From assembly GCF_013122565.1 (NCBI RefSeq), contig NZ_CP053258.1: 64,000 bases of DNA; one strand, written 5' to 3'. The stretch is from Escherichia coli. GTDB taxonomy: Bacteria > Pseudomonadota > Gammaproteobacteria > Enterobacterales > Enterobacteriaceae. Made by a program: the position numbers and the translations under genes. The notes beneath the pieces are model-generated. The model was not told where the DNA came from. It was given only the letters and a program-made list of their open reading frames with translations, and ran no database searches. Shown here piece by piece: positions 5,885-42,320 of the stretch. Numbering within the stretch: the stretch's first letter is position 1; each line of letters starts with the position of its first letter.

Positions 5885-8119
5885 ATGGTTGCGGTAAGAA
5901 GTGCACATATCAATAAGGCTGGTGAATTTGATCCGGAAAAATGGATCGCAAGTCTGGGTATTACCAGCCAGAAGTCGTGTGAGTGCTTAGCCGAAACCTG
6001 GGCGTATTGTCTGCAACAGACGCAGGGGCATCCGGATGCCAGTCTGTTATTGTGGCGTGGTGTTGAGATGGTGGAGATCCTCTCGACATTAAGTATGGAC
6101 ATTGACACGCTGCGGGCGGCGCTGCTTTTCCCTCTGGCGGATGCCAACGTAGTCAGCGAAGATGTGCTGCGTGAGAGCGTCGGTAAGTCGGTCGTTAACC
6201 TTATTCACGGCGTGCGTGATATGGCGGCGATCCGCCAGCTGAAAGCGACGCACACTGATTCTGTTTCCTCCGAACAGGTCGATAACGTTCGCCGGATGTT
6301 ATTGGCGATGGTCGATGATTTTCGCTGCGTGGTCATCAAACTGGCGGAGCGTATTGCTCATCTGCGTGAAGTAAAAGATGCGCCGGAAGATGAACGCGTA
6401 CTGGCGGCAAAAGAGTGCACCAATATCTACGCGCCGTTGGCAAACCGTCTTGGGATTGGGCAACTGAAATGGGAGCTGGAAGATTACTGCTTCCGTTATC
6501 TCCACCCGACCGAATACAAACGCATCGCAAAACTGTTGCATGAACGCCGTCTCGACCGCGAACACTATATCGAAGAGTTTGTCGGTCATCTGCGCGCTGA
6601 GATGAAAGCTGAAGGCGTTAAAGCTGAAGTGTATGGTCGTCCGAAACACATCTACAGCATCTGGCGCAAAATGCAGAAAAAGAACCTCGCCTTCGATGAG
6701 CTGTTTGATGTGCGTGCGGTACGTATTGTCGCCGAGCGTTTACAGGATTGTTATGCCGCACTGGGGATAGTGCACACTCACTATCGCCACCTGCCGGATG
6801 AGTTTGACGATTATGTCGCTAACCCGAAACCAAACGGTTATCAGTCTATTCATACCGTGGTTCTGGGGCCGGGTGGAAAAACCGTTGAGATCCAAATCCG
6901 CACCAAACAGATGCATGAAGATGCAGAGTTGGGTGTTGCTGCGCACTGGAAATATAAAGAGGGCGCGGCAGCTGGCGGCGCACGTTCGGGACATGAAGAC
7001 CGGATTGCCTGGCTGCGTAAACTGATTGCGTGGCAGGAAGAGATGGCTGATTCCGGCGAAATGCTCGACGAAGTACGTAGTCAGGTCTTTGACGACCGGG
7101 TGTACGTCTTTACGCCGAAAGGTGATGTCGTTGATTTGCCTGCGGGATCAACGCCGCTGGACTTCGCTTACCACATCCACAGTGATGTCGGACACCGCTG
7201 CATCGGGGCAAAAATTGGCGGGCGCATTGTGCCGTTCACCTACCAGCTGCAGATGGGCGACCAGATTGAAATTATCACCCAGAAACAGCCGAACCCCAGC
7301 CGTGACTGGTTAAACCCAAACCTCGGTTACGTCACAACCAGCCGTGGGCGTTCGAAAATTCACGCCTGGTTCCGTAAACAGGACCGTGACAAAAACATTC
7401 TGGCTGGGCGGCAAATCCTTGACGACGAGCTGGAACATCTGGGGATCAGCCTGAAAGAAGCAGAAAAACATCTGCTGCCGCGTTACAACTTCAATGATGT
7501 CGACGAGTTGCTGGCGGCGATTGGTGGAGGGGATATCCGTCTCAATCAGATGGTAAACTTCCTGCAATCGCAATTTAATAAGCCGAGTGCCGAAGAGCAG
7601 GACGCCGCCGCGCTGAAGCAACTTCAGCAAAAAAGCTACACGCCGCAAAACCGCAGTAAAGATAACGGTCGTGTGGTGGTTGAAGGTGTCGGTAACCTGA
7701 TGCACCACATCGCGCGCTGCTGCCAGCCGATTCCTGGAGATGAGATTGTCGGCTTCATTACCCAGGGACGCGGTATTTCAGTACACCGCGCCGATTGCGA
7801 ACAACTGGCGGAACTGCGCTCCCATGCGCCAGAACGCATTGTTGACGCGGTATGGGGCGAGAGCTACTCCGCCGGATATTCGCTGGTGGTCCGCGTGGTG
7901 GCTAATGATCGTAGTGGGTTGTTACGTGATATCACGACCATTCTCGCCAATGAGAAAGTGAACGTGCTTGGCGTTGCCAGCCGTAGCGACACCAAACAGC
8001 AACTGGCGACCATCGACATGACCATTGAGATTTACAACCTGCAAGTGCTGGGTCGCGTGCTGGGTAAACTCAACCAGGTGCCGGATGTTATCGACGCGCG
8101 TCGGTTGCACGGGAGTTAG
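5885..8119 (+). CDS. relA: GTP pyrophosphokinase ((p)ppGpp synthetase I)
   Basis: 744 aa; ends ...VPDVIDARRLHGS, typical RelA. Confidence 0.96.
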   Translation: MVAVRSAHINKAGEFDPEKWIASLGITSQKSCECLAETWAYCLQQTQGHPDASLLLWRGVEMVEILSTLSMDIDTLRAALLFPLADANVVSEDVLRESVGKSVVNLIHGVRDMAAIRQLKATHTDSVSSEQVDNVRRMLLAMVDDFRCVVIKLAERIAHLREVKDAPEDERVLAAKECTNIYAPLANRLGIGQLKWELEDYCFRYLHPTEYKRIAKLLHERRLDREHYIEEFVGHLRAEMKAEGVKAEVYGRPKHIYSIWRKMQKKNLAFDELFDVRAVRIVAERLQDCYAALGIVHTHYRHLPDEFDDYVANPKPNGYQSIHTVVLGPGGKTVEIQIRTKQMHEDAELGVAAHWKYKEGAAAGGARSGHEDRIAWLRKLIAWQEEMADSGEMLDEVRSQVFDDRVYVFTPKGDVVDLPAGSTPLDFAYHIHSDVGHRCIGAKIGGRIVPFTYQLQMGDQIEIITQKQPNPSRDWLNPNLGYVTTSRGRSKIHAWFRKQDRDKNILAGRQILDDELEHLGISLKEAEKHLLPRYNFNDVDELLAAIGGGDIRLNQMVNFLQSQFNKPSAEEQDAAALKQLQQKSYTPQNRSKDNGRVVVEGVGNLMHHIARCCQPIPGDEIVGFITQGRGISVHRADCEQLAELRSHAPERIVDAVWGESYSAGYSLVVRVVANDRSGLLRDITTILANEKVNVLGVASRSDTKQQLATIDMTIEIYNLQVLGRVLGKLNQVPDVIDARRLHGS

Positions 8120-8214: not shown

Positions 8215-9006
8215 ATGAATCAAATCGACCGTTTGCTCACCATCATGCAGCGTCTTCGCGACCCGGAAAACGGCTGCCCGTGGGATAAAGAGCAGACATT
8301 TGCAACCATTGCGCCTTACACCCTTGAAGAAACCTACGAAGTGCTGGACGCCATCGCCCGCGAAGACTTTGACGATCTGCGCGGTGAACTCGGCGATCTG
8401 CTGTTCCAGGTGGTGTTTTACGCACAAATGGCCCAGGAAGAAGGGCGCTTTGATTTTAATGATATTTGCGCCGCGATTAGCGATAAATTAGAGCGTCGCC
8501 ATCCGCATGTTTTTGCTGACAGTTCTGCCGGAAACAGCCGCGAAGTTCTCGCCCGTTGGGAGCAAATCAAAACCGAAGAGCGCGCGCAGAAAGCGCAGCA
8601 TTCGGCGCTGGACGATATTCCTCGTAGTTTACCAGCCTTAATGCGTGCGCAAAAAATCCAGAAACGTTGCGCCAACGTTGGCTTCGACTGGACGACGCTT
8701 GGCCCGGTGGTTGATAAAGTCTACGAAGAGATCGATGAGGTGATGTGCGAGGCACGGCAGGCTGTTATCGACCAGGCTAAACTGGAGGAGGAAATGGGGG
8801 ACCTGCTGTTTGCCACGGTCAATCTGGCTCGTCATTTAGGGACAAAAGCGGAAATCGCATTGCAAAAAGCGAACGAAAAATTCGAGCGTCGTTTTCGCGA
8901 AGTGGAGCGTATTGTTGCCGCGCGTGGACTGGAAATGACAGGTGTTGACCTCGAAACAATGGAAGAAGTCTGGCAACAGGTAAAACGGCAGGAAATTGAT
9001 CTCTAA
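8215..9006 (+). CDS. mazG: Nucleoside triphosphate pyrophosphohydrolase MazG
   Basis: 263 aa, tandem MazG domains; starts 95 bp after the relA stop. Confidence 0.94.
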   Translation: MNQIDRLLTIMQRLRDPENGCPWDKEQTFATIAPYTLEETYEVLDAIAREDFDDLRGELGDLLFQVVFYAQMAQEEGRFDFNDICAAISDKLERRHPHVFADSSAGNSREVLARWEQIKTEERAQKAQHSALDDIPRSLPALMRAQKIQKRCANVGFDWTTLGPVVDKVYEEIDEVMCEARQAVIDQAKLEEEMGDLLFATVNLARHLGTKAEIALQKANEKFERRFREVERIVAARGLEMTGVDLETMEEVWQQVKRQEIDL

Positions 9007-20394: not shown

Positions 20395-20560
20395 ATATTG
20401 CCGGATAAATTAAACGCCTCTGTCAGAAATGATGGGGGCGTTTTTATTTTGCGAGCAGCATTCCTGATTTTAAACGTGAACGCCGCTGGAAGAATTATCA
20501 GGTATAGAATGGCGTCGGGTGCTTGAGGCTGTCTGGCGTTAAGCATTCGCGAGGTTCCAG

Positions 20561-20665
20561 ATGGACAAAAGCCCCAGGCGATATTTCTATCAACCTGAGG
20601 CTTACGTTCGAACCCAAACAATTCGAATGTTAGTCTCTTCTTTGCAGGGAGGCAAGACATGCTGA
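20561..20665 (+). CDS. mok-like leader ORF overlapping the hok start
   Basis: 34-codon ORF whose TGA overlaps the hok ATG (ATGCTGA) in another frame, the arrangement typical of hok/mok loci. Confidence 0.3.
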
Positions 20666-20811
20666 CAAAATATGCCCTTGTGGCAATCATCGTACTGTGT
20701 TGTACAGTACTGGGATTCACGCTGATGGTAGGCGACTCGTTGTGTGAGTTGAGTATCAGAGAACGTGGTATGGAGTTTAAGGCAGTTCTCGCTTACGAAT
20801 CGAAGAAGTAG
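20659..20811 (+). CDS. Hok/Gef-family type I toxin (50 aa small membrane protein)
   Basis: Hand translation [50 protein letters not shown] has the Hok pattern (TM helix, then L-C-E-hydrophobic, then a conserved AYES-type C-terminus); absent from the ORF track because under 60 aa. Confidence 0.75.
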
Positions 20812-21048: not shown

Positions 21049-22392
21049 GTGACTTTCTTTGATTTCTGGGGAAAAACCCGACGTGGCGAGAAAGAAGGGG
21101 GCGACGGCTATCACCTTCTTTGCTGGCATTCGCTGGATGTGGCCGCGATGGGCTATTTAATGGTTAAAAGAAATTGCTTCGGGCTGGCTGACTATTTTCG
21201 TCAATTAGGGATTTCTGACAAGGAACAGGCAGCTCAATTTTTCGCCTGGTTGCTGTGCTGGCACGATATTGGAAAATTTGCCCGCTCTTTTCAACAACTT
21301 TACCTGCCCCCTGAATTCAAGATTCAGGAAGGTGCCAGAAAAAATTACGAAAAAATCTCTCATTCAACGCTGGGCTACTGGTTGTGGAATCATTATTTAA
21401 GTGAATGTCAGGAGTTACTTCCTTCATCTTCGCTCTCTCCGCGCAAACTTAGGCGAGTGATAGAAATGTGGATGCCCGTGACGACAGGGCATCATGGTCG
21501 GCCCCCTGATCGTATGGATGAATTGGATAATTTTCTGCCTGAAGACAAAGCTGCAGCACGAGATTTTCTCCTTGAAATCAAACCACTGTTTCCGCTCATA
21601 GAGATCCCCGCATTCTGGGATGATGATGAGGGCATTGAACTTATAAAACACCTTTCCTGGTATATCTCTGCAACCGTCGTGCTCGCAGACTGGACGGGTT
21701 CGTCAACGCGATTTTTTCCACGCGTCGCACACCCAATGGATATTAAAGGTTACTGGCAGAAAACTTTAGTTCAGGCTCAAAATGCCTTAACCGTCTTTCC
21801 TCTAAAAGCAAAAGTCGCGCCTTTCACCGGAATTAATACGCTGTTTCCTTTTATTGAGAATCCGACACCGTTACAGCAAAAGGTGCTGGATCTGGATATC
21901 AGCCAGCCAGGGCCACAGTTATTTATTCTGGAAGATGTGACTGGCGCAGGTAAAACGGAAGCGGCGCTTATCCTGGCGCACAGGTTGATGGCTGCGGGTA
22001 AAGCGCAGGGTTTGTTTTTTGGCCTGCCAACAATGGCAACGGCCAATGCCATGTATGATCGGCTCGTCAAAACCTGGCTTTCTTTCTATTCGCCAGAATC
22101 TCGCCCCAGCCTGGTGCTGGCACACAGTGCCCGCACATTAATGGACCGCTTTAATGAATCACTCTGGTCCGGTGATTTAATCGGGTCAGAAGAACCGGAT
22201 GAACAAGCTTTCAGCCAGGGTTGTGCGGCCTGGTTTGCCGACAGTAACAAGAAGGCGTTGCTGGCTGAAATTGGCGTCGGCACCCTGGATCAGGCGATGA
22301 TGGCAGTGATGCCGTTTAAACATAATAATCTGCGGCTTCTGGGGCTGAGTAACAAAATCGTGTTCCCCGCGCCAGCGGGGATAAACCGATGA
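21049..22392 (+). pseudogene. cas3: Truncated cas3 (type I-E): HD nuclease domain and helicase motif I only, reading through into the first CRISPR repeat
   Basis: 447-codon ORF with GTG start; HD motif (HSLDV..WHDIGK) and Walker A (DVTGAGKTEA); the frame ends ...[18 protein letters not shown], where the last residues are translated repeat; no DExH motif II or C-terminal domain. Confidence 0.8.
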
Positions 22393-24586
22393 ATATTTGC
22401 GAATATTCGGCAGAAAGCGGGTGTTCCCCGCGCCAGCGGGGATAAACCGAGGTTGCGGCACAAATTGAGGTTGTCGCAAATGTGTTCCCCGCGCCAGCGG
22501 GGATAAACCGCCGACGCAGCAGCGGCAGCAGCGGCAGCAGCGGTGTTCCCCGCGCCAGCGGGGATAAACCGTGGATCAGTGCCGCGTTCTCTCTCCGTGT
22601 AATGTGTTCCCCGCGCCAGCGGGGATAAACCGATCGAGACGGGTACGCGTAAAGCCGAGCTGGCGTGTTCCCCGCGCCAGCGGGGATAAACCGCGATCGG
22701 TTAATTCTTCTACCTGCCTTTGCAGGTGTTCCCCGCGCCAGCGGGGATAAACCGCCCGCAATGCATTCGGGCAGTTCCTTGCCGGGGTGTTCCCCGCGCC
22801 AGCGGGGATAAACCGGAGATTGAGCCAGACGCCCGCCAGGTGTTACTGTGTTCCCCGCGCCAGCGGGGATAAACCGGAAGTAACACACCCAACCCAGGTT
22901 GCGCCAGAGTGTTCCCCGCGCCAGCGGGGATAAACCGCCTGTTTGAGCAGGCGCGAATGAACCGGACCAGTGTTCCCCGCGCCAGCGGGGATAAACCGTC
23001 AGGTAAGCCAGTGTTAGGGGCAATATAGCAGTGTTCCCCGCGCCAGCGGGGATAAACCGTCATCGGCTCGTTATTTGTAGCCAGCACTACGGTGTTCCCC
23101 GCGCCAGCGGGGATAAACCGCTTTATCAGATGGTAAAGGTGAATCAATATGAGTGTTCCCCGCGCCAGCGGGGATAAACCGATACCCCAGCGTTTCGTTA
23201 TATGACGGAAGATGTGTTCCCCGCGCCAGCGGGGATAAACCGTGCAACCAGGACGGCAGGACGCATCGCCAGATGTGTTCCCCGCGCCAGCGGGGATAAA
23301 CCGCACGTTATTATCCGATATTCACCGATAAGCGTGTGTTCCCCGCGCCAGCGGGGATAAACCGTCTGGGCGTAAACAGTCGGATAAATCGCGGGTGTGT
23401 TCCCCGCGCCAGCGGGGATAAACCGGCGGCGTGTGGGGTAACAATCAGGGAGAGAAAGTGTTCCCCGCGCCAGCGGGGATAAACCGGATAAATACAGTAT
23501 ATTCCCGCGCTCTGCTGGCGTGTTCCCCGCGCCAGCGGGGATAAACCGTAGATTTTGTCCGGCTCAGGTGCGCCGATGGTGTGTTCCCCGCGCCAGCGGG
23601 GATAAACCGATCGAGTACAACAAAAAATATACTGAGTGAGTGTGTTCCCCGCGCCAGCGGGGATAAACCGCTGTTTGCTCCTGCTGCTCATTTAGTGATT
23701 TAGTGTTCCCCGCGCCAGCGGGGATAAACCGCCTGTTCTTTTTTAGTCAACTTAACCATGCTCGTGTTCCCCGCGCCAGCGGGGATAAACCGTCTTTTTC
23801 GAGACTTGCAGCAACGCTCTGAAAGTGTTCCCCGCGCCAGCGGGGATAAACCGATCGAGTAGTTTTGAGGGTTGGTGAATTCAGGGTGTTCCCCGCGCCA
23901 GCGGGGATAAACCGCTTAATAAATGGACTTAAGCGCCCAGTATTGGGTGTTCCCCGCGCCAGCGGGGATAAACCGGGGAGGGCGAGCCGCCGTAGGTGCG
24001 GTGAGGGGTGTTCCCCGCGCCAGCGGGGATAAACCGACGCAGAAACTGGTTGAAATAGTTTACGGTGAGTGTTCCCCGCGCCAGCGGGGATAAACCGGCA
24101 GTAAATTATTTGACCTCGTTGATAATCCCGTGTTCCCCGCGCCAGCGGGGATAAACCGGTGGCGGTGTGATTGTGGGACTTATTGCCATCGTGTTCCCCG
24201 CGCCAGCGGGGATAAACCGGGCCTTTTCAGCAGATTAACCGCCGCGATTGCGTGTTCCCCGCGCCAGCGGGGATAAACCGAGAGATTTATATTCTTTCAA
24301 ACCGGATTATATCGTGTTCCCCGCGCCAGCGGGGATAAACCGCTTCAAGAATTTTTAAACGCTGGCTTCAAAATGTGTTCCCCGCGCCAGCGGGGATAAA
24401 CCGTCCCACGCGTGCCAGATGGCGCGTTTGATGGCGTGTTCCCCGCGCCAGCGGGGATAAACCGATGATAACGGCAAAGGGTACGCTACGTACAACGTGT
24501 TCCCCGCGCCAGCGGGGTTAAACTGTGATCCAGTGAGTACCGATCCGGGAACAACCGGTGTTCCTCGCATCAGCGGGGATAAACCG
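22360..24586 (+). CRISPR. Type I-E CRISPR array, 37 recognisable repeats and 36 spacers, no adjacent cas operon or leader
   Basis: 29-bp repeat GTGTTCCCCGCGCCAGCGGGGATAAACCG at 61-bp period from 22360; spacers 32 bp except two of 33 bp (after repeats 19 and 32); repeats 36 and 37 degenerate; a possible further decayed copy near 24619..24648. Confidence 0.97.
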
Positions 24587-30986: not shown

Positions 30987-32012
30987 TTGAGTTTGATAAT
31001 CTCACTTACCTCCACGGTAAACCGCAAGGCACCGGGCTGCTGAAAGCCAATCCGGAAGACTTTGTGGTGGTGGAAGATTTGGGCTTTGAGCCTGATGGTG
31101 AAGGTGAGCATATTCTGGTTAGAATCCTCAAAAACGGCTGCAATACCCGTTTTGTGGCGGATGCACTGGCGAAATTCCTGAAAATTCATTCCCGTGAAGT
31201 CAGCTTCGCTGGGCAAAAAGACAAACATGCTGTTACGGAACAGTGGTTATGCGCTCGCGTGCCGGGCAAAGAGATGCCCGATCTGAGTGCCTTTCAACTG
31301 GAAGGCTGCCAGGTGCTGGAGTATGCGCGGCACAAGCGTAAGTTGCGTTTAGGTGCACTAAAAGGTAATGCCTTCACTCTGGTGCTGCGCGATGTAAGCA
31401 ACCGTGACGATGTTGAACAACGTCTCATCGATATTTGCGTAAAAGGTGTACCGAACTACTTCGGTGCCCAACGTTTTGGGATTGGCGGTAGCAACTTGCA
31501 GGGTGCGCTGCGCTGGGCGCAAACCAATACTCCGGTGCGCGATCGCAATAAACGGAGTTTTTGGTTGTCGGCAGCCCGCAGTGCGTTGTTTAATCAGATT
31601 GTTGCTGAGCGCCTCAAAAAAGCAGACGTTAATCAAGTTGTTGACGGCGATGCGCTACAATTAGCCGGACGTGGTAGCTGGTTTGTCGCAACCACCGAAG
31701 AACTGGCGGAATTACAGCGTCGCGTCAACGATAAAGAGTTGATGATAACCGCCGCATTGCCGGGCAGTGGCGAATGGGGAACTCAGCGTGAAGCGCTGGC
31801 ATTCGAACAAGCAGCTGTCGCCGCAGAAACTGAATTACAAGCCTTACTGGTGCGCGAAAAAGTTGAAGCCGCGCGCAGAGCGATGCTGCTGTATCCGCAA
31901 CAATTAAGCTGGAACTGGTGGGATGACGTCACCGTAGAAATCCGTTTCTGGCTTCCGGCGGGTAGTTTTGCAACCAGCGTTGTCAGGGAACTTATCAACA
32001 CAACAGGTGATT

Positions 32013-32032
<20 letters not shown>
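30983..32032 (+). CDS. truD: tRNA pseudouridine13 synthase
   Basis: 349 aa; overlaps the ispF stop. Confidence 0.94.
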
Positions 32033-33394
<1,362 letters not shown>

Positions 33395-33532
33395 AACGTG
33401 AGGAAATACCTGGATTTTTCCTGGTTATTTTGCCGCAGGTCAGCGTATCGTGAACATCTTTTCCAGTGTTCAGTATGGTGCCTTGCACGGTAATTATGTC
33501 ACTGGTTATTAACCAATTTTCCTGGGGGATAA

Positions 33533-34672
33533 ATGAGCGCGGGAAGCCCAAAATTCACCGTTCGCCGCATTGCGGCATTGTCACTGGTTTCGCTATGGCT
33601 GGCAGGCTGTTCTGACACTTCAAATCCACCAGCACCGGTCAGCTCCGTTAATGGCAATGCGCCTGCAAATACCAATTCTGGTATGTTGATTACGCCGCCG
33701 CCGAAAATGGGGACGACGTCTACAGCGCAGCAACCGCAAATTCAGCCGGTGCAGCAGCCACAAATTCAGGCTACTCAACAACCGCAAATCCAGCCAGTGC
33801 AGCCAGTAGCTCAGCAGCCGGTACAGATGGAAAACGGACGCATCGTCTATAACCGTCAGTATGGGAACATTCCGAAAGGCAGTTATAGCGGCAGTACCTA
33901 TACCGTGAAAAAAGGCGACACGCTTTTCTATATCGCCTGGATAACTGGCAACGATTTCCGTGACCTTGCTCAGCGCAACAATATTCAGGCACCATACGCG
34001 CTGAACGTCGGTCAGACCTTACAGGTGGGTAATGCTTCCGGTACGCCAATCACTGGCGGAAATGCCATTACCCAGGCCGACGCAGCAGAGCAAGGAGTTG
34101 TGATCAAGCCTGCACAAAATTCCACCGTTGCTGTTGCGTCGCAACCGACAATTACGTATTCTGAGTCTTCGGGTGAACAGAGTGCTAACAAAATGTTGCC
34201 GAACAACAAGCCAACTGCGACCACGGTCACAGCGCCTGTAACGGTACCAACAGCAAGCACAACCGAGCCGACTGTCAGCAGTACATCAACCAGTACGCCT
34301 ATCTCCACCTGGCGCTGGCCGACTGAGGGCAAAGTGATCGAAACCTTTGGCGCTTCTGAGGGGGGCAACAAGGGGATTGATATCGCAGGCAGCAAAGGAC
34401 AGGCAATTATCGCGACCGCAGATGGCCGCGTTGTTTATGCCGGTAACGCGCTGCGCGGCTACGGTAATCTGATTATCATCAAACATAATGATGATTACCT
34501 GAGTGCCTACGCCCATAACGACACAATGCTGGTCCGGGAACAACAAGAAGTGAAGGCGGGGCAAAAAATAGCAACCATGGGTAGCACCGGAACCAGTTCA
34601 ACACGCTTGCATTTTGAAATTCGTTACAAGGGGAAATCCGTAAACCCGCTGCGTTATTTGCCGCAGCGATAA
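33533..34672 (+). CDS. nlpD: Lipoprotein NlpD (LysM plus M23 peptidase-like)
   Basis: 379 aa; lipobox LAGCS, Gln/Pro repeats, LysM and M23 domains. Confidence 0.94.
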
Positions 34673-34734
34673 ATCGGCGGAACCAGGCTTTTGCTTGAAT
34701 GTTCCGTCAAGGGATCACGGGTAGGAGCCACCTT

Positions 34735-35727
34735 ATGAGTCAGAATACGCTGAAAGTTCATGATTTAAATGAAGATGCGGAATTTGATGAGAACGGAGTT
34801 GAGGTTTTTGACGAAAAGGCCTTAGTAGAAGAGGAACCCAGTGATAACGATTTGGCCGAAGAGGAACTGTTATCGCAGGGAGCCACACAGCGTGTGTTGG
34901 ACGCGACTCAGCTTTACCTTGGTGAGATTGGTTATTCACCACTGTTAACGGCCGAAGAAGAAGTTTATTTTGCGCGTCGCGCACTGCGTGGAGATGTTGC
35001 CTCTCGCCGCCGGATGATCGAGAGTAACTTGCGTCTGGTGGTAAAAATTGCCCGCCGTTATGGCAATCGTGGTCTGGCGTTGCTGGACCTTATCGAAGAG
35101 GGCAACCTGGGGCTGATCCGCGCGGTAGAGAAGTTTGACCCGGAACGTGGTTTCCGCTTCTCAACATACGCAACCTGGTGGATTCGCCAGACGATCGAAC
35201 GGGCGATTATGAACCAAACCCGTACTATTCGTTTGCCGATTCACATCGTAAAGGAGCTGAACGTTTACCTGCGAACCGCACGCGAGTTGTCCCATAAACT
35301 GGACCACGAACCAAGTGCGGAAGAGATCGCAGAGCAACTGGATAAGCCAGTTGATGACGTCAGTCGTATGCTTCGTCTTAACGAGCGCATTACCTCGGTA
35401 GACACCCCGCTGGGTGGTGATTCCGAAAAAGCGTTGCTGGACATCCTGGCCGATGAAAAAGAGAACGGTCCGGAAGATACCACGCAAGATGACGATATGA
35501 AGCAGAGCATCGTCAAATGGCTGTTCGAGCTGAACGCCAAACAGCGTGAAGTACTGGCACGTCGATTCGGTTTGCTGGGGTACGAAGCGGCAACACTGGA
35601 AGATGTAGGTCGTGAAATTGGCCTCACCCGTGAACGTGTTCGCCAGATTCAGGTTGAAGGCCTGCGCCGTTTGCGCGAAATCCTGCAAACGCAGGGGCTG
35701 AATATCGAAGCGCTGTTCCGCGAATAA
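34735..35727 (+). CDS. rpoS: RNA polymerase sigma factor RpoS (sigma-38)
   Basis: ORF track 34699..35727; start [14 protein letters not shown] gives 330 aa; codon 33 is GAG (Glu) and the frame is intact. Confidence 0.96.
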
Positions 35728-35743
35728 GTAAGCATCTGTCAGA

Positions 35744-35780
35744 AAGGCCAGTCTCAAGCGAGGCTGGCCTTTTTTCTTTT
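35744..35780 (+). terminator. rpoS rho-independent terminator
   Basis: aaaggccag-tctcaagcgagg-ctggccttttttctttt. Confidence 0.7.
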
Positions 35781-35847
35781 GTTTGGGAAGCATGTGTTTT
35801 TGTCGCCTGGATAAGACACGTCAGCGTCCTACCCGGCAATCAGCATT

Positions 35848-36255
35848 CTATGTGTTCATCATCTTGCGCACCAACTGCATAAACAGCTCCTGCTCTTCTG
35901 CACTCAAACGCCCCAAAAATTCCTCATCCACGCTGTCACCAATGGGGATCGCCGCAGCAAGTACCTTTTCTCCTTCGGCAGTCAGCCAGACAAAGCGTCG
36001 CCGCTTGTCAGCGGCGTCATGTTCACGTCTGACTAAGCCACGATTTTCCATTCTTGCCAACATTTCTGCCAGCGTTGCTTTGGTGCTGACTGCTGCTTCT
36101 ATCAGTGCCACCTGTTCGATACCAGGCTTATCAGCAATGGCGCGCATCACCGCGTACTGTGGTTTGGTCAGGTCAGGTAACTCGTGCTGCCAGCGAGCCG
36201 TGTGCTGCTGAAAAAGCTGTCGTAACTGATGGAACGCTTTATTTCGTAACGCCAT
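35848..36255 (-). CDS. MarR/SlyA-family transcriptional regulator
   Basis: 135 aa; winged-helix MarR-like sequence; divergent from the decarboxylase genes. Confidence 0.8.
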   Translation of the reverse strand: MALRNKAFHQLRQLFQQHTARWQHELPDLTKPQYAVMRAIADKPGIEQVALIEAAVSTKATLAEMLARMENRGLVRREHDAADKRRRFVWLTAEGEKVLAAAIPIGDSVDEEFLGRLSAEEQELFMQLVRKMMNT

Positions 36256-36370
36256 GTAAACTCCGGGCTAATTCTCTGCCGCTATCATAGCGGTTTTTCA
36301 GTGACGAAGAAGATGTTGTTACTTTTCAGCGCTTGCCGCGATGAAAACAGAGGCGTATTTTAATAATAAC

Positions 36371-36384
36371 GTTCGTATACGAAC
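36371..36384. promoter_or_regulatory. Candidate operator: perfect 14-bp palindrome GTTCGTATACGAAC
   Basis: Perfect inverted repeat about 18 bp upstream of the UbiX-like start, in the divergent intergenic region with the MarR-family gene. Confidence 0.4.
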
Positions 36385-36401
36385 AATTTAGAGAGTAAGC
36401 A

Positions 36402-36995
36402 ATGAAACTGATCGTCGGGATGACAGGGGCCACCGGAGCGCCTCTTGGTGTGGCATTACTGCAAGCACTGCGGGAGATGCCGAATGTCGAGACTCATCTG
36501 GTGATGTCGAAGTGGGCGAAAACCACCATTGAACTGGAAACGCCTTACAGCGCCCGCGATGTTGCTGCCCTCGCTGACTTCAGCCATAACCCGGCGGATC
36601 AGGCGGCGACCATCTCCTCAGGTTCCTTTCGTACCGACGGCATGATCGTTATTCCGTGCAGTATGAAAACGCTCGCAGGTATCCGTGCCGGTTACGCCGA
36701 TGGCCTGGTAGGGCGCGCGGCGGACGTCGTGCTCAAAGAAGGCCGCAAACTGGTGCTGGTGCCGCGTGAAATGCCGCTTAGCACCATCCATCTCGAAAAT
36801 ATGCTCGCACTTTCACGCATGGGCGTGGCGATGGTGCCGCCGATGCCTGCCTTTTATAACCATCCCGAAACGGTAGATGACATTGTCCACCATGTGGTAG
36901 CCCGCGTGTTGGATCAATTTGGCCTCGAACATCCCCACGCCAGGCGCTGGCAAGGATTGCCGCAGGCCCTGAATTTTTCTCAGGAGAATGAATAA
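36402..36995 (+). CDS. UbiX/Pad1-family flavin prenyltransferase (decarboxylase B subunit)
   Basis: 197 aa; MKLIVGMTGATGA... flavoprotein fold of the UbiX family. Confidence 0.85.
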   Translation: MKLIVGMTGATGAPLGVALLQALREMPNVETHLVMSKWAKTTIELETPYSARDVAALADFSHNPADQAATISSGSFRTDGMIVIPCSMKTLAGIRAGYADGLVGRAADVVLKEGRKLVLVPREMPLSTIHLENMLALSRMGVAMVPPMPAFYNHPETVDDIVHHVVARVLDQFGLEHPHARRWQGLPQALNFSQENE

Positions 36996-38422
36996 TGGCA
37001 TTTGATGATTTACGCAGCTTTTTACTGGCGCTTGATGACCACGGCCAGTTACTGAAAATCAGCGAAGAGGTGAACGCGGAACCGGATCTGGCAGCAGCAG
37101 CTAACGCCACCGGGCGTATCGGCGATGGCGCGCCCGCGCTGTGGTTTGATAATATTCGCGGTTTTACCGATGCGCGCGTGGCGATGAATACCATCGGTTC
37201 CTGGCAGAACCACGCGATTTCCCTCGGCCTGCCGCCAAACACGCCGGTCAAAAAGCAGATTGATGAGTTTATCCGCCGCTGGGATAACTTCCCGATCGCC
37301 CCGGAGCGCCGCGCCAATCCAGCCTGGGCGCAGAACACCGTCGATGGCGACGAGATTAACCTGTTCGATATTCTGCCGCTGTTTCGTTTAAACGACGGTG
37401 ATGGCGGTTTCTATCTCGATAAAGCGTGCGTGGTTTCCCGCGACCCGCTCGATCCGGATAACTTCGGCAAGCAGAACGTCGGTATCTACCGCATGGAAGT
37501 GAAGGGCAAACGTAAGCTCGGCCTGCAACCGGTGCCGATGCACGATATCGCCCTGCATCTGCATAAAGCGGAAGAGCGCGGTGAAGATCTGCCGATTGCG
37601 ATCACCCTCGGTAACGATCCGATCATCACCCTGATGGGCGCCACCCCGCTGAAATACGATCAGTCTGAGTACGAAATGGCGGGCGCACTGCGCGAAAGCC
37701 CGTACCCGATCGCTACCGCGCCATTGACCGGTTTTGACGTGCCGTGGGGTTCTGAAGTGATCCTCGAAGGCGTTATCGAAAGCCGCAAACGTGAAATCGA
37801 AGGGCCATTCGGTGAGTTTACCGGCCACTACTCCGGCGGGCGTAACATGACCGTGGTGCGCATCGATAAAGTCTCTTACCGCACCAGGCCGATTTTCGAA
37901 TCGCTGTACCTCGGCATGCCGTGGACCGAAATCGACTACCTGATGGGGCCTGCCACCTGCGTGCCGCTTTACCAGCAACTGAAAGCCGAGTTCCCGGAAG
38001 TGCAGGCGGTAAACGCCATGTACACCCACGGCCTGCTGGCGATTATCTCCACCAAAAAACGCTACGGCGGCTTTGCCCGCGCGGTGGGGCTGCGAGCAAT
38101 GACAACGCCGCATGGTTTGGGCTACGTGAAGATGGTGATTATGGTCGATGAAGACGTTGATCCGTTCAACCTGCCACAGGTGATGTGGGCGCTCTCCTCG
38201 AAAGTGAACCCGGCGGGCGACCTGGTGCAGTTGCCGAATATGTCCGTGCTGGAACTCGACCCAGGTTCAAGCCCGGCGGGGATCACCGACAAGCTGATTA
38301 TCGACGCCACCACGCCTGTTGCCCCGGACAACCGTGGTCACTACAGCCAGCCGGTGGTGGATTTACCGGAAACCAAAGCCTGGGCTGAAAAACTGACCGC
38401 TATGCTGGCCGCACGTAAATAA
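36995..38422 (+). CDS. UbiD-family (prenyl-FMN-dependent) aromatic acid decarboxylase, C subunit
   Basis: 475 aa; translationally coupled to the UbiX-like gene (ATAATGG overlap). Confidence 0.85.
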   Translation: MAFDDLRSFLLALDDHGQLLKISEEVNAEPDLAAAANATGRIGDGAPALWFDNIRGFTDARVAMNTIGSWQNHAISLGLPPNTPVKKQIDEFIRRWDNFPIAPERRANPAWAQNTVDGDEINLFDILPLFRLNDGDGGFYLDKACVVSRDPLDPDNFGKQNVGIYRMEVKGKRKLGLQPVPMHDIALHLHKAEERGEDLPIAITLGNDPIITLMGATPLKYDQSEYEMAGALRESPYPIATAPLTGFDVPWGSEVILEGVIESRKREIEGPFGEFTGHYSGGRNMTVVRIDKVSYRTRPIFESLYLGMPWTEIDYLMGPATCVPLYQQLKAEFPEVQAVNAMYTHGLLAIISTKKRYGGFARAVGLRAMTTPHGLGYVKMVIMVDEDVDPFNLPQVMWALSSKVNPAGDLVQLPNMSVLELDPGSSPAGITDKLIIDATTPVAPDNRGHYSQPVVDLPETKAWAEKLTAMLAARK

Positions 38423-38432
38423 GGAGAACAAG

Positions 38433-38669
38433 ATGATTTGTCCACGTTGTGCCGATGAACAGATTGAAGTGATGGCGAAATCGCCGGTGAAAGATGTCTG
38501 GACGGTCTACCAGTGCCAGCATTGCCTTTATACCTGGCGCGATACCGAACCGCTACGCCGCACCAGTCGCGAACATTACCCGGAAGCGTTTCGCATGACG
38601 CAGAAAGATATTGATGATGCGCCAATGGTGCCGAGCATCCCGCCGCTGCTGGCGGCAGATAAGCGTTAA
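38433..38669 (+). CDS. Small zinc-ribbon decarboxylase subunit (D subunit)
   Basis: 78 aa with two CxxC pairs (CPRC ... CQHC); third gene of a B-C-D decarboxylase operon. Confidence 0.75.
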   Translation: MICPRCADEQIEVMAKSPVKDVWTVYQCQHCLYTWRDTEPLRRTSREHYPEAFRMTQKDIDDAPMVPSIPPLLAADKR

Positions 38670-38710
38670 TAAAAAAGTGCTGGGTAGAGGCTTTGCTTTA
38701 CCCGGCCACG

Positions 38711-39367
38711 TTATTTAATTTTATAAAACGATAACCGTCCACTCTCCGGCGAGCCGGTATCAATATAAACTTGATTGGCAAATGTCTGGATATTGGTAAA
38801 CATCATATGCCCGAAGATAAAACAGTCTGCACCGTTTATTTCTTTTAACTCTCCCTTGAATGATTTCTGCACGCGATCAACAGGCCAGAGTAATTCTCTT
38901 TCTGCTATTTCTTTACCAAACTGATATTCATCACCCGGATAATCCGCATGTGCGATGACATATTTTATTCTGTCGTTAGTGATTTCAATAATATGTGGAA
39001 GGTGATGAAATTTCAGCAACAGATCTATTGCCTCTTGTTGCTCTGAATCATTTAAATCGAAAAACCAGTCACCACCGCTGGCAAGCCACATGTTGCCATC
39101 GCCGGTCGCGAACGCATCCAGCGCCATTGCTTCGTGGTTGCCTTTAACGGAGATAAACCAGGGCTGGTTTAGCAGGCGCAGGACGCTAAGACTCTCCGGC
39201 CCACGATCAATATTATCGCCGACAGAAATAAGTAAGTCGGTTTCGGGGAAAAAAGAGAGTTGATGTAAACGGGATTGTAATAACTGATATTCACCATGAA
39301 TATCACCAACGACCCATATATGGCGATAGTGACGGGCATTGATTTTTTGATAGCGTGTAGATGGCAT
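38711..39367 (-). CDS. pphB: Serine/threonine protein phosphatase 2 (lambda-phosphatase-like)
   Basis: 218 aa; metallophosphatase motifs GDIHG, GDNIDRG, GNHE; adjacent to mutS. Confidence 0.88.
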   Translation of the reverse strand: MPSTRYQKINARHYRHIWVVGDIHGEYQLLQSRLHQLSFFPETDLLISVGDNIDRGPESLSVLRLLNQPWFISVKGNHEAMALDAFATGDGNMWLASGGDWFFDLNDSEQQEAIDLLLKFHHLPHIIEITNDRIKYVIAHADYPGDEYQFGKEIAERELLWPVDRVQKSFKGELKEINGADCFIFGHMMFTNIQTFANQVYIDTGSPESGRLSFYKIK

Positions 39368-39472
39368 GGTTTTACCCTGTAAAATAAGCTTTCCTATTAT
39401 ACAGGGTATTTTTATTTGATTCGTCAGTTGTCGTTAATATTCCCGATAGCAAAAGACTATCGGGAATTGTTA

Positions 39473-42034
39473 TTACACCAGACTCTTCAAGTGATAAATC
39501 CACTCCAGCGCCTGACGCGGGGTCAGTGAATCCGGGTCGAGATTTTCCAGCGCTTCCACCGCGGGCGAGGTTTCTTCCGGCACTGAAAGCAGCGACATCT
39601 GCGTACCATCAACCTGCGTAGCGGCGGCATTCGGCGAAATGCTCTCCAGCTCGCGCAGTTTCTGCCGCGCACGCTTGATCACCTCTTTCGGCACACCCGC
39701 CAGCGCAGCAACCGCCAGGCCGTAGCTTTTGCTCGCCGCGCCGTCCTGCACGCTGTGCATAAAGGCAATGGTATCGCCGTGCTCCAGTGCATCGAGATGC
39801 ACGTTGGCGACGCCTTCCATTTTCTCCGGTAACTGGGTCAGCTCGAAATAGTGGGTAGCAAACAACGTCAACGCTTTAATCTTATTCGCCAGATTTTCCG
39901 CGCACGCCCACGCCAGCGACAGACCATCGTAAGTGGACGTTCCACGCCCAATCTCATCCATCAGCACCAGACTGTACTCGGTGGCGTTATGTAAAATATT
40001 GGCGGTTTCGGTCATTTCCACCATAAAGGTTGAACGGCCGGAAGCCAGATCGTCCGCTGCCCCTACGCGGGTAAAGATGCGATCGATAGGTCCAATCTCG
40101 ACTTTTTGTGCCGGTACATAGCTGCCGATGTAGGCCATCAACGCAATCAGTGCGGTCTGGCGCATATAGGTACTTTTACCGCCCATATTCGGACCGGTAA
40201 TGATCAACATGCGACGCTGCGGCGACAGGTTCAGCGGGTTGGCGATAAACGGCTCATTCAGCACCTGTTCAACCACCGGATGGCGGCCTTCGGTGATGCG
40301 AATACCCGGTTTATCAATAAAGGTCGGGCAGGTGTAGTTCAGGGTATAGGCCCGCTCTGCCAGGTTAACCAGCACATCAAGTTCTGCCAGCGCGCTTGCG
40401 CTCTGTTGCAACGCTTCCAGATGCGGCAACAGCAGGTCGAACAGCTCTTCATAAAGCTGTTTTTCCAGTGCCAGTGCTTTGCCTTTTGAGGTGAGAACTT
40501 TATCTTCGTACTCTTTTAGCTCTGGAATAATGTAGCGTTCGGCGTTTTTCAGCGTCTGGCGGCGCATGTAGTTAATCGGAGCCAGGTGGCTTTGCCCACG
40601 GCTGATCTGAATGTAATAGCCATGCACCGCGTTAAAGCCAACTTTCAGCGTGTCCAGGCCGGTACGTTCACGCTCGCGGATTTCCAGACGCTCCAGATAA
40701 TCGGTCGCGCCGTCAGCCAGCGCGCGCCACTCATCCAGCTCTTCGTTATAGCCCGATGCGATAACACCACCGTCGCGTACCAGCACTGGCGGTGTGTCGA
40801 TGATTGCTCGCTCCAGCAGATCGCGCAGCTCGGCAAACTCGCCCATCTTCTCACGCAGCGCCTGTACCGGTGCACTATCGACGCCTTCCAGTTGCGCACG
40901 AAGTTCCGGCAGTTGCTGGAAAGCGTGACGCATACGGGCCAGATCGCGTGGGCGAGCGGTACGCAACGCCAGACGCGCCAGAATACGTTCCAGGTCGCCG
41001 ACCTGACGCAGTACCGGCTGCAGCTCGGCGGTGAAATCCTGCAATGCGCCAATAGTTTGCTGGCGCTCAAGCAACACGCGGGTATCGCGCACTGGCATAT
41101 GCAGCCAGCGCTTCAGCATACGGCTACCCATCGGCGTTACAGTGCAGTCGAGTACGGAAGCCAGCGTGTTTTCCGCACCACCCGCCAGATTCTGGGTGAT
41201 TTCCAGATTTCGACGCGTCGCGGCATCCATAATGATGCTGTCCTGCTCACGTTCCATGGTGATAGAACGAATATGCGGCAGGGTTGTGCGTTGGGTATCT
41301 TTCGCATACTGCAACAGACAACCGGCAGCACAAAGTCCGCGCGGCGCGTTCTCGACGCCGAAACCAATCAGATCACGAGTACCAAATTGCAGGTTCAACT
41401 GCTGGCGCGCGGTGTCGATTTCAAACTCCCACAGCGGGCGACGGCGCAGACCGCGACGACCTTCAATTAACGACATTTCAGCAAAATCTTCTGCATACAG
41501 CAGTTCCGCCGGATTAGTGCGTTGCAGTTCTGCCGCCATCGTTTCCCGGTCAGCCGGTTCGCTAAGGCGAAAACGACCGGAGCTGATATCCAGCGTCGCG
41601 TAGCCGAAACCTTTACTGTCCTGCCAGATAGCCGCCAACAGGTTGTCCTGACGCTCCTGCAACAGCGCTTCATCACTGATGGTGCCTGGCGTAACGATAC
41701 GCACAACTTTGCGCTCAACCGGACCTTTGCTGGTCGCCGGATCGCCAATTTGTTCGCAGATGGCAACGGACTCGCCCTGATTCACCAGTTTGGCGAGGTA
41801 GTTTTCCACCGCATGGTAGGGGATCCCCGCCATCGGGATCGGCTCGCCCGCTGAAGCGCCGCGTTTGGTCAGTGAAATATCCAGCAGTTGCGACGCGCGT
41901 TTTGCGTCGTCATAAAACAGTTCATAAAAATCACCCATCCGGTAAAACAGCAGGATCTCGGGATGCTGGGCTTTCAGCTTGAGATACTGCTGCATCATGG
42001 GCGTATGGGCGTCGAAATTTTCTATTGCACTCAT
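39473..42034 (-). CDS. mutS: DNA mismatch repair protein MutS
   Basis: 853 aa; Walker [10 protein letters not shown]. Confidence 0.97.
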
Positions 42035-42280
42035 GGGGTTATGTCCGGTTCCCTGATATTAAATGGGGTGTGATGGTTTTTATTTTCGTTGTAATCACAT
42101 AAGGCGCACATGATACCGGAGTTAATCATTTCAGGGGAAGAAGCGAACGGCGAGTTCTTGATGCTGGTTCCGGGAAAGATGCTGTTTTGCAGCTTTTGCG
42201 TGATGCTTATGAAGCAAGTACGCAAAATTGTATCGGTTGAATAAACCTCCTCCTTCAGAGCCATAGTCCCCTTTCAAATT

Positions 42281-42303
42281 AAGTTGTAGTATAAATACAC
42301 CTT
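42281..42303 (+). promoter_or_regulatory. Candidate NsrR-type operator upstream of ygbA
   Basis: aagttgtagtataaatacacctt, an imperfect AT-rich inverted repeat about 20 bp upstream of ygbA; the match to the NsrR consensus is approximate and from memory. Confidence 0.3.
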
Positions 42304-42320
42304 AAGAGTATGGAGGCAGT

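Follow-up and report, generated by a model that had tools for sequence, protein, structure and literature searches.

What is the role of the regulated UbiX/UbiD-type gene cluster that lies between rpoS and mutS in this Escherichia coli genome, and on which substrate does it act? We propose, with a probability of about 0.9, that this module is hosA-ecdBCD, which would encode an inducible and reversible non-oxidative decarboxylase of 4-hydroxybenzoate and vanillate. The same genes have been named slyA-like/pad1/yclC/yclD, kpdBCD, vdcBCD-type or the "HAD operon". The locus is already known and characterized and nothing is new in its identity: crystal structures have been solved for the regulator and the B subunit from E. 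coli and for a homologous C-D complex, and the inducer, the operator, a RefSeq name and a literature on its use as a lineage marker exist. The published activity data come from Klebsiella, Enterobacter, Bacillus and Sedimentibacter homologs and the regulation data from E. coli UMN026, that is, from alleles other than the one analyzed here.

Organization of the locus

The ORF list of the window (the whole stretch of 64,000 nucleotides that was analyzed) confirmed four ORFs, a MarR-family gene followed by the genes of subunits B, C and D (Table 1). The MarR-family gene is divergent from the compact B-C-D operon, with rpoS on one side and pphB-mutS on the other. The three enzyme genes are arranged in the order B-C-D on a single strand, as one operon: the stop codon of B and the start codon of C share one base (TAATG), and the stop codon of C is separated from the start of D by 10 nt, with a TAAGGAG Shine-Dalgarno sequence overlapping the C stop codon. 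Both the ORFs and the profile matches described below agree with the original prediction of a divergent MarR-family gene and an operon for a UbiX-like protein, a UbiD-family protein and a 78-aa protein with two CxxC motifs. An Rfam scan returned no match within or near the module.

Table 1. Features of the module and of its immediate surroundings, with positions counted from the first nucleotide of the window
Feature	Position	Strand	Remarks
rpoS	34738..35727	+	Left conserved flank; ORF; annotated rpoS in matching E. coli records
rpoS intrinsic terminator	35741..35774	+	15-bp stem, then a run of T
hosA, MarR/SlyA-family repressor	35848..36255	-	135 aa; Pfam MarR
Putative sigma-70 promoter for ecdBCD (TTGCCG, 17 nt, TATTTT)	36333..36361	+	Candidate assigned by eye
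HosA operator, perfect 14-bp palindrome GTTCGTATACGAAC	36371..36384	.	17 nt upstream of the start codon of B
B subunit (EcdB/Pad1/VdcB), UbiX-type flavin prenyltransferase making prFMN	36402..36995	+	197 aa
C subunit (EcdC/YclC/VdcC), prFMN-dependent UbiD-family decarboxylase	36995..38422	+	475 aa; Pfam UbiD_N, UbiD, UbiD_C
D subunit (EcdD/VdcD), zinc-ribbon activator of C	38433..38669	+	78 aa
Terminator-like hairpin between the convergent D and pphB genes	38679..38706	+	Hairpin scan
pphB	38711..39367	-	NCBIfam PRK09968, 464 bits; adjoins the module directly
mutS	39473..42034	-	Right end of the region; ORF

On the left, the polymorphic segment begins immediately past the rpoS terminator, at about 35775-35782. 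In module-less E. coli genomes, the match to the window ends at 35773-35781 (positions 74-82 of the query 35700-38720), and the RpoS protein of the window shows 100% amino-acid identity to RpoS in the loci L001-L009 and L085. On the right, the module ends at about 38674, where E. coli genomes with ygbN beside the D gene cease to match (query position 2975). The window has no ygbI-ygbN cluster, so that pphB stands directly beside the module. The rpoS-mutS interval had been described as polymorphic, with different genes in K-12, and this proved correct, as the K-12-like strain 33-6 carries ygbN-ygbI between rpoS and pphB instead.

Identity of the enzyme subunits

All three subunits exceed the curated NCBIfam cut-offs for VdcB, VdcC and VdcD, the subunits of the non-oxidative hydroxyarylic acid decarboxylases. 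The B subunit scores 312 bits on the VdcB model NF041206 (cut-off 290, E = 9e-94) and is identical to the Pad1 protein of E. coli O157:H7 (PDB 1sbz) at 195 of its 197 positions. It also obtains 257 bits on the UbiX family model and passes the UbiX subfamily models. The C subunit reaches 788.1 bits on the VdcC model NF041204 (cut-off 650, E = 2e-237), with residues 4-469 matched, and is 54% identical to ShVdcC (PDB 7ae4_A, E = 1e-159, 536 bits). The catalytic Arg-Glu-Glu network of UbiD is conserved in EcdC as R166 (in NVGIYR), E269 and E274 (both in EGPFGEF), E274 being aligned with the catalytic E278 of ShVdcC.

The D subunit scores 121 bits on the VdcD model NF041205 (cut-off 30, E = 1e-35), is matched to ShdD (PDB 7ae4 chain a) and carries Pfam PF26358 (EcdD_BsdD_detox) in precomputed annotation; the local copy of Pfam, which does not include the EcdD family, gave a sub-threshold DUF1062 match alone. 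Its cysteines 3, 6, 28 and 31 form two CxxC motifs and occupy the positions of the zinc ligands of ShVdcD, while its proline-rich tail MVPSIPPL aligns with VIPPIPPL of the same protein. Published work on VdcCD has established that VdcD is needed for activity, that zinc is held by C3, C6, C28 and C31 and that the substrate pocket is lined by L182, M423 and I60. The catalytic R/E/E residues, the four zinc cysteines and the proline-rich tail are all shared by the window proteins with ShdBCD/VdcCD of Sedimentibacter hydroxybenzoicus (7ae4) and BsdBCD/VdcCD of Bacillus subtilis. By homology to VdcCD (7ae4), the C and D sequences would be consistent with a C6D6 complex. These scores and the 7ae4 match, together with the identities of HosA and Pad1 to solved E. 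coli proteins, agree with the assignment to the hydroxyarylic-acid-type decarboxylases made beforehand.

The residues setting the substrate width of the pocket are V180 and L419 in EcdC and V66 in EcdD. They resemble those of the Bacillus enzyme (V179, L419 and V67), whereas Sedimentibacter differs (L182, M423 and I60). As this pocket is like that of the wider Bacillus type, syringate may also be a substrate of the enzyme.

That the enzyme decarboxylates protocatechuate (AroY-type) or gallate (LpdC-type), in place of 4-hydroxybenzoate and vanillate, appears improbable. The AroY structures 5o3m and 5ny5 are detectable homologs of the C subunit, and the B and D proteins of Enterobacter raise AroY activity in engineered strains. 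However, these AroY structures match at 92-100 bits versus 536 bits for VdcC (7ae4) and are not the closest solved relatives of C. Moreover, a zinc ribbon of the VdcD type is not an integral subunit of AroY or LpdC, and the published inducer is 4-hydroxybenzoate. Some side activity on dihydroxybenzoates is still possible.

A second UbiD/UbiX pair serving ubiquinone biosynthesis by decarboxylation of 3-octaprenyl-4-hydroxybenzoate, for instance as an anaerobic back-up, is very improbable. The module does share its superfamilies (UbiD domains of Pfam, UbiX subfamily) and the prFMN cofactor chemistry with UbiD/UbiX of E. coli, and the structures of E. coli UbiD are the third-best PDB match of the C subunit. 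Yet the 475-aa protein obtains 172.7 bits on the true-UbiD equivalog model PRK10922, below its cut-off of 788, while exceeding that of VdcC, which bears out the original placement in the catabolic clade and not with UbiD proper. In addition, the module includes a VdcD-type subunit, obligate in homologs, HosA answers to free 4-hydroxybenzoate in published work, and 56% of complete E. coli genomes are devoid of the module, including K-12-like strains with normal ubiquinone. Unlike E. coli UbiD, the hosA-ecdBCD module would rely on an extra obligate D subunit and act on free phenolic acids, while being inducible and dispensable.

Probable regulation by HosA

The regulator of the window is identical, at 135 of 135 residues, to the "Transcriptional regulator HosA" of PDB entry 8aga. 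The latter is the protein of EPEC E2348/69, which has been crystallized with 4-hydroxybenzoate bound (bioRxiv 10.1101/2024.04.24.590444; 8aga). According to Roy & Ranjan 2016, as summarized in bioRxiv 10.1101/2024.04.24.590444, HosA represses the decarboxylase operon and 4-hydroxybenzoate relieves this repression. The KD of HosA for 4-hydroxybenzoate is 4.7 µM (PMC6261655). The published regulation data were obtained on E. coli UMN026. By analogy, the HosA of the window would sense 4-hydroxybenzoate and leave the DNA on binding it.

The palindrome GTTCGTATACGAAC located between hosA and the operon, which was also picked up as a hairpin or palindrome in scans, is found with its flanks in the HosA binding-site oligonucleotides of supplementary table S1 of PMC6261655, and the UMN026 operator is the same. 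Its half-sites GTTCG/CGAAC are kept in nearly all related loci whose upstream DNA was included, and the operator is conserved in ~80 Enterobacterales species at the same spacing to the first gene. A promoter scan at the module returned no consensus sigma-70 site; the putative BCD promoter, which agrees with the consensus at 8 of 12 positions and falls under the scan threshold, is a weak candidate. If transcription is driven from this site, the operator would lie just downstream of the transcription start, in agreement with the literature (bioRxiv 10.1101/2024.04.24.590444).

The hosA-pad1-yclC-yclD genes of E. coli O157:H7, EPEC and UMN026 represent the same locus as the module of the window. 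With O157:H7, the window shares its place beside rpoS and its direct D-pphB junction ("pattern I"). Only the allele differs: the DNA of the module reaches ~96% identity with the best-matching copies in E. coli, and the changes in ecdC are almost all synonymous. Relative to other Escherichia alleles, ecdC displays 60-86 nucleotide differences and just 1-5 amino-acid changes. This gene is under strong purifying selection, and all three enzyme genes are intact.

Similarly, KpdBCD of Klebsiella pneumoniae and the 4-hydroxybenzoate decarboxylase from Enterobacter cloacae P240 are encoded by a B-C-D operon of the same kind, with the MarR gene again divergent. In Bacillus, control of the operon lies with a LysR-type regulator and not with a MarR protein. 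In the Klebsiella and Enterobacter species sampled, the C proteins are 96-97% identical to EcdC of the window and the regulator is more diverged from its HosA (71-81% identity). Many Klebsiella/Enterobacter-type genera possess a second operator-like site ~57 nt further upstream, in contrast to the window.

The first description of HosA, in EPEC, was as a motility regulator, and control of flagellar motility has been reported; the decarboxylase operon is possibly not its sole target. It is nevertheless scarcely credible that the SlyA-like HosA serves chiefly virulence and motility and that the decarboxylase genes next to it persist only incidentally or as a remnant in decay. This early report and the use of the region as a pathotype marker would favor such a role, but it is at odds with three intact enzyme genes under strong purifying selection and with an operator placed in front of the operon. 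The hosA-B-C-D set and its operator are, furthermore, kept across Enterobacterales, plant and environmental genera included.

Proposed mechanism and physiological role

The substrate in E. coli had been considered not firmly established, a view at variance with the published work: 4-hydroxybenzoate releases HosA, and the kpdBCD operon of Klebsiella converts 4-hydroxybenzoate into phenol, as stated in PMC6424909, which cites Lupa 2005. The same source presents this conversion as demonstrated for the Klebsiella and Enterobacter enzymes. Intestinal Enterobacteriaceae possessing the operon have been shown to produce phenol (PMC6424909).

A mechanism can be proposed for the module on this basis. 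In the absence of inducer, a HosA dimer would sit on GTTCGTATACGAAC just upstream of ecdB and silence both the operon and hosA itself, as reported for UMN026, the site and the protein being conserved here. Binding of 4-hydroxybenzoate, at micromolar affinity in the literature, would then take HosA off the DNA. With an overlap of 1 nt and a gap of 10 nt between the genes, ecdB, ecdC and ecdD would probably be expressed from a single transcript and translationally coupled. EcdB, like other members of the UbiX family, would prenylate reduced FMN to form prFMN, which EcdC would take up. From the literature on VdcCD of Sedimentibacter and Bacillus, the four-cysteine zinc ribbon of EcdD is predicted to pair with EcdC one-to-one and to steady the loops bearing the Arg-Glu-Glu residues, the enzyme being inactive without D. 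Finally, the complex would strip CO2 from its substrates, giving phenol from 4-hydroxybenzoate and guaiacol from vanillate, with an oxygen-sensitive enzyme, as known from the homologs.

Could the enzyme run in reverse in vivo, as a phenol carboxylase feeding anaerobic phenol degradation? Reversibility in vitro and the family name, which includes "phenol carboxylases" in the title of Lupa 2005, speak for such a function, but it is most unlikely, given that the acid induces the operon and phenol does not, that no downstream anaerobic aromatic pathway adjoins the module and that the operon-bearing intestinal Enterobacteriaceae make phenol. Because E. coli cannot degrade phenol, the benefit of the decarboxylation is likely phenolic-acid detoxification and not carbon supply. 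Gut Enterobacteriaceae retain this conserved enzyme, which would yield toxic phenol. The system already has practical uses, HosA as a 4-hydroxybenzoate biosensor and the B and D proteins for boosting aromatic decarboxylases in lignin valorization.

Distribution and evolution of the locus

Of the 5426 complete E. coli genomes, 2379 (~44%) carry the module, and in these its products bear the RefSeq name [quoted passage not shown]. The direct D-pphB junction is common to 780 complete E. coli genomes. By in-silico PCR, the window yields products of 1319 bp (mutS-yclC) and 1394 bp (slyA-nlpD), and primers for o454 and o388 have no site within it. The published "pattern I" of the mutS-rpoS region (O157:H7 / EHEC 1 type) is defined by products of ~1318 bp and ~1393 bp, respectively, and by the lack of o454 (ygbN) (Ewers et al. 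2014). The gene order of the window is that of pattern I.

Beyond E. coli, a synteny table revealed the B-C-D order in roughly 70 further species; in 12 related loci, the B gene was not found and the regulator gene is directly upstream of C. According to the same table, hosA-BCD is located between rpoS and mutS in most of the Enterobacteriaceae genera sampled. A recent transfer "from Shigella" has been proposed (bioRxiv 10.1101/2024.04.24.590444). Since most of the genera sampled share the rpoS-mutS location, this is a poorer fit than an old vertical presence followed by repeated loss and recombination.

A more speculative reading, which we regard as rather doubtful, is that the module, beyond a dispensable catabolic accessory, is an ancestral and strongly conserved valve of Enterobacterales for free 4-hydroxybenzoate, that its E. 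coli carriers are significant producers of phenol in the gut and that K-12 and B2 strains have lost it secondarily. 4-Hydroxybenzoate serves as a precursor of ubiquinone, arises from the hydrolysis of parabens and occurs in the diet as a phenolic acid. This reading is suggested by the identity of EcdC, which is 88-99% from Escherichia to Vibrio, by the fixed rpoS-mutS position in most Enterobacteriaceae and by a divergence in ecdC that is almost entirely synonymous.

With regard to the origin of the allele itself, the module and mutS, being only ~96% identical to E. coli, raised the possibility that the window derives from a non-coli Escherichia. This was rejected, as ordinary E. coli matches the flanks cysD-rpoS and fhlA-hyc at 98.3-99.0% identity. 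Escherichia sp. E1V33 was likewise rejected as the donor of the divergent DNA, with an identity of 91-92% only. The divergence is confined to a ~6.5-kb block from hosA to mutS (35781 to about 42320), where identity to typical E. coli is only about 94-95%, as against 98-99% in the flanks. Within this block, mutS is unusually divergent, its best match among the 5426 complete E. coli genomes being 95.7%.

Identity of the hosA-ecdBCD Module

Between rpoS and pphB, the regulator gene hosA and the three decarboxylase genes ecdB, ecdC and ecdD (subunits B, C and D) occupy exactly the four open reading frames originally predicted from sequence alone. An intergenic region of 146 bp separates hosA from ecdB, the stop codon of ecdB and the start codon of ecdC share one base (TAATG), and ecdD begins 10 nt after ecdC, with a TAAGGAG ribosome-binding site overlapping the ecdC stop codon.

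Features of the window discussed in the text
Feature	Position	Strand	Remarks
relA	5885-8119
mazG	8215-9006
hok/sok-type locus	20517-20811		Between cysH and cas3 remnant
sok (Rfam)	20517-20674		113 bits
Hok-like ORF	20659-20811		50 aa, intact
cas3 ORF	21049-22392		Truncated
cas3 ORF plus CRISPR array	21049-24520		Array starts at 22360
rpoS terminator	35741-35774		Left neighbor of module
Divergent block	35781-42320		About 6.5 kb, limits approximate
hosA	35848-36255	minus	135 aa, ORF list
Candidate promoter	36333-36361		TTGCCG, 17 nt, TATTTT
Palindromic operator	36371-36384		14 bp
ecdB	36402-36995	plus	197 aa, ORF list
ecdC	36995-38422	plus	475 aa, ORF list
ecdD	38433-38669	plus	78 aa, ORF list
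pphB	38711-39367		Convergent with module, right neighbor
mutS	39473-42034		Next after pphB

All three subunits exceed the curated NCBIfam cut-offs of the models that NCBI applies to "non-oxidative hydroxyarylic acid decarboxylases", with 312 bits on VdcB for the B subunit (cut-off 290), 788 bits on VdcC for the C subunit (cut-off 650) and 121 bits on VdcD for the D subunit (cut-off 30). Assignment of the C subunit to UbiD proper, the outcome that the original prediction had set against a catabolic decarboxylase, is ruled out, since this protein scores only 173 bits on the corresponding model (PRK10922, cut-off 788). In a search of solved structures, the regulator proved identical at 135/135 positions to HosA from enteropathogenic E. 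coli (8aga), and the B subunit at 195/197 to the O157:H7 "Pad1" structure (1sbz). For the C subunit, the Sedimentibacter VdcCD complex (7ae4) gives a C-chain match at E = 1e-159 and 54% identity, and scores are far lower against UbiD (163 bits), Fdc1 (about 85 bits) and AroY (92-100 bits); the subunit retains the UbiD catalytic network of one arginine and two glutamates (R166, E269, E274). The D protein aligns with the small 7ae4 chain so that its cysteines, at positions 3, 6, 28 and 31, coincide with all four zinc ligands. Family scores and structural matches thus support the reading of this locus as a MarR-regulated UbiX/UbiD/zinc-ribbon decarboxylase module. The sequence, structure, regulation and population distribution of this module were already known, and RefSeq has a specific name for it.

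Mechanism, Substrates and Regulation

In VdcCD, the C subunit by itself is inactive; the zinc ribbon protein D binds it stoichiometrically and stabilizes the loops bearing catalytic residues, forming an oxygen-sensitive holoenzyme of a C hexamer with six D subunits, for which 4-hydroxybenzoate and vanillate are good substrates (PMC8379154). Pocket width is set by three residues; those of Sedimentibacter are L182, M423 and I60 of the D subunit, and the Bacillus enzyme, which takes syringate as well, has V179, L419 and V67 (PMC8379154). By alignment, the window enzyme has V180 and L419 in C and V66 in D, unlike the Sedimentibacter enzyme, and is predicted to share the wider Bacillus-type pocket. 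Klebsiella kpdBCD converts 4-hydroxybenzoate to phenol, according to PMC6424909 in its account of Lupa 2005, and intestinal Enterobacteriaceae carrying the operon are strong producers of phenol (PMC6424909). As the C subunit shares 96-97% identity with its counterparts in the sampled Klebsiella and Enterobacter species, transfer of function to the window module should be safe.

A perfect 14-bp palindrome, GTTCGTATACGAAC, lies in the hosA-ecdB intergenic region, and this 14-mer with its flanking bases is also present in the HosA binding-site oligonucleotides from E. coli UMN026 (PMC6261655, supplementary table S1). HosA binds 4-hydroxybenzoate with a KD of 4.7 uM and is thereby freed from DNA (PMC6261655). 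As summarized in two preprints (including 10.1101/2024.04.24.590444), Roy & Ranjan 2016 found that HosA acts from a site downstream of the transcription start to repress both its own gene and the decarboxylase operon, which 4-hydroxybenzoate induces several-fold. A weak candidate promoter, not called by the automatic promoter scan, would place the operator at about +4 to +17. The earlier view of the substrate as not firmly established is out of date for chemistry and inducer, and holds for ecological purpose only.

Conservation and Origin of the Module

One scan of representative genomes found close relatives of the C subunit in 80 species, and in this set the order regulator-B-C-D persists across Enterobacterales. 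Amino acid identity of the C subunit is 88-99% across these loci, from Escherichia to Rahnella, Pantoea and even Vibrio salinus, while that of the regulator is only 50-81% outside Escherichia (50-65% in distant genera). For an accessory gene, ecdC is unusually conserved, its product being at least as conserved as MutS in the same loci. Compared with three other Escherichia alleles, ecdC differs at 60-86 nucleotides but changes only 1-5 amino acids, so the gene is functional and strongly constrained. In twelve of the 80 loci, no B gene was found and the regulator gene immediately precedes that for C; these loci presumably rely on the housekeeping UbiX. In nearly all loci with upstream DNA, the operator half-sites GTTCG/CGAAC are almost unchanged and lie about 25-30 nt ahead of the first gene. 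A further operator-like site, GATCGTRTACGAAC, precedes the main one by about 57 nt in many genera and is lacking from the window.

Horizontal acquisition of hosA and the operon from Shigella dysenteriae has been proposed (preprint 10.1101/2024.04.24.590444). This origin is disfavored by a synteny comparison (loci L007-L062 against window 32000-42034), in which most of the sampled Enterobacteriaceae genera have the module in the rpoS-mutS interval, including Escherichia, Citrobacter, Pseudocitrobacter, Enterobacter, the Klebsiella oxytoca group, Kluyvera, Leclercia, Kosakonia, Atlantibacter and Franconibacter. Such a distribution points to an ancestral presence followed by losses and allelic exchange.

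Polymorphism of the rpoS-mutS Region in E. coli

The module occurs, always on the chromosome, in 2379 of 5426 complete E. coli genomes. In 780 of these carriers ecdD directly abuts pphB, as in the window, and the remainder keep the ygbN-ygbI cluster between the two; K-12-like genomes have ygbN-ygbI only. Four patterns of the mutS-rpoS region were described by Ewers et al. 2014 (PMC4209514). With their primers, in-silico PCR on the window gave mutS-yclC (1319 bp) and slyA-nlpD (1394 bp) products and no o454 or o388 primer sites; the region is therefore pattern I, the type of O157:H7/EHEC 1.

The window flanks are those of an ordinary E. coli (98.3-99.0% identity), whereas in a block running from just past the rpoS terminator to just beyond mutS identity to typical E. 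coli falls to 93.7-94.6%; this block comprises hosA-ecdBCD-pphB-mutS and the spacer upstream of mutS. Its pphB and mutS are outlier alleles, 90-92% and 93.5-94.2% identical to those of three E. coli strains sharing 96.5-99% identity among themselves, and the best mutS match among the 5426 complete genomes reaches 95.7%. At least two sequencing runs (SRR11451224, SRR11451197) and one NCBI assembly (GCA_052983875.1) carry the same allele. Low identity between high-identity flanks, together with these alleles, suggests a recombinant segment that is either old or imported. Recombination around mutS has been described earlier, and the divergent block is in keeping with it. Escherichia sp. E1V33 was rejected as its donor.

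Other Loci in the Window

Only 95 nt separate relA from mazG, and mazEF is absent from this gap. Since K-12 carries this toxin-antitoxin pair between the two genes, mazEF appears to be missing from the strain. The cas3 ORF matches positions 6-441 of an 878-position Cas3 model and runs directly into a CRISPR array of type I-E with 35 or more repeats (GTGTTCCCCGCGCCAGCGGGGATAAACCG, 61-nt period). No casABCDE, cas1 or cas2 was found between cysH and iap in the window, which marks the array as an orphan left by deletion. A chromosomal hok/sok-type toxin-antitoxin locus, with both a sok match and an intact Hok-like reading frame, precedes the cas3 remnant.
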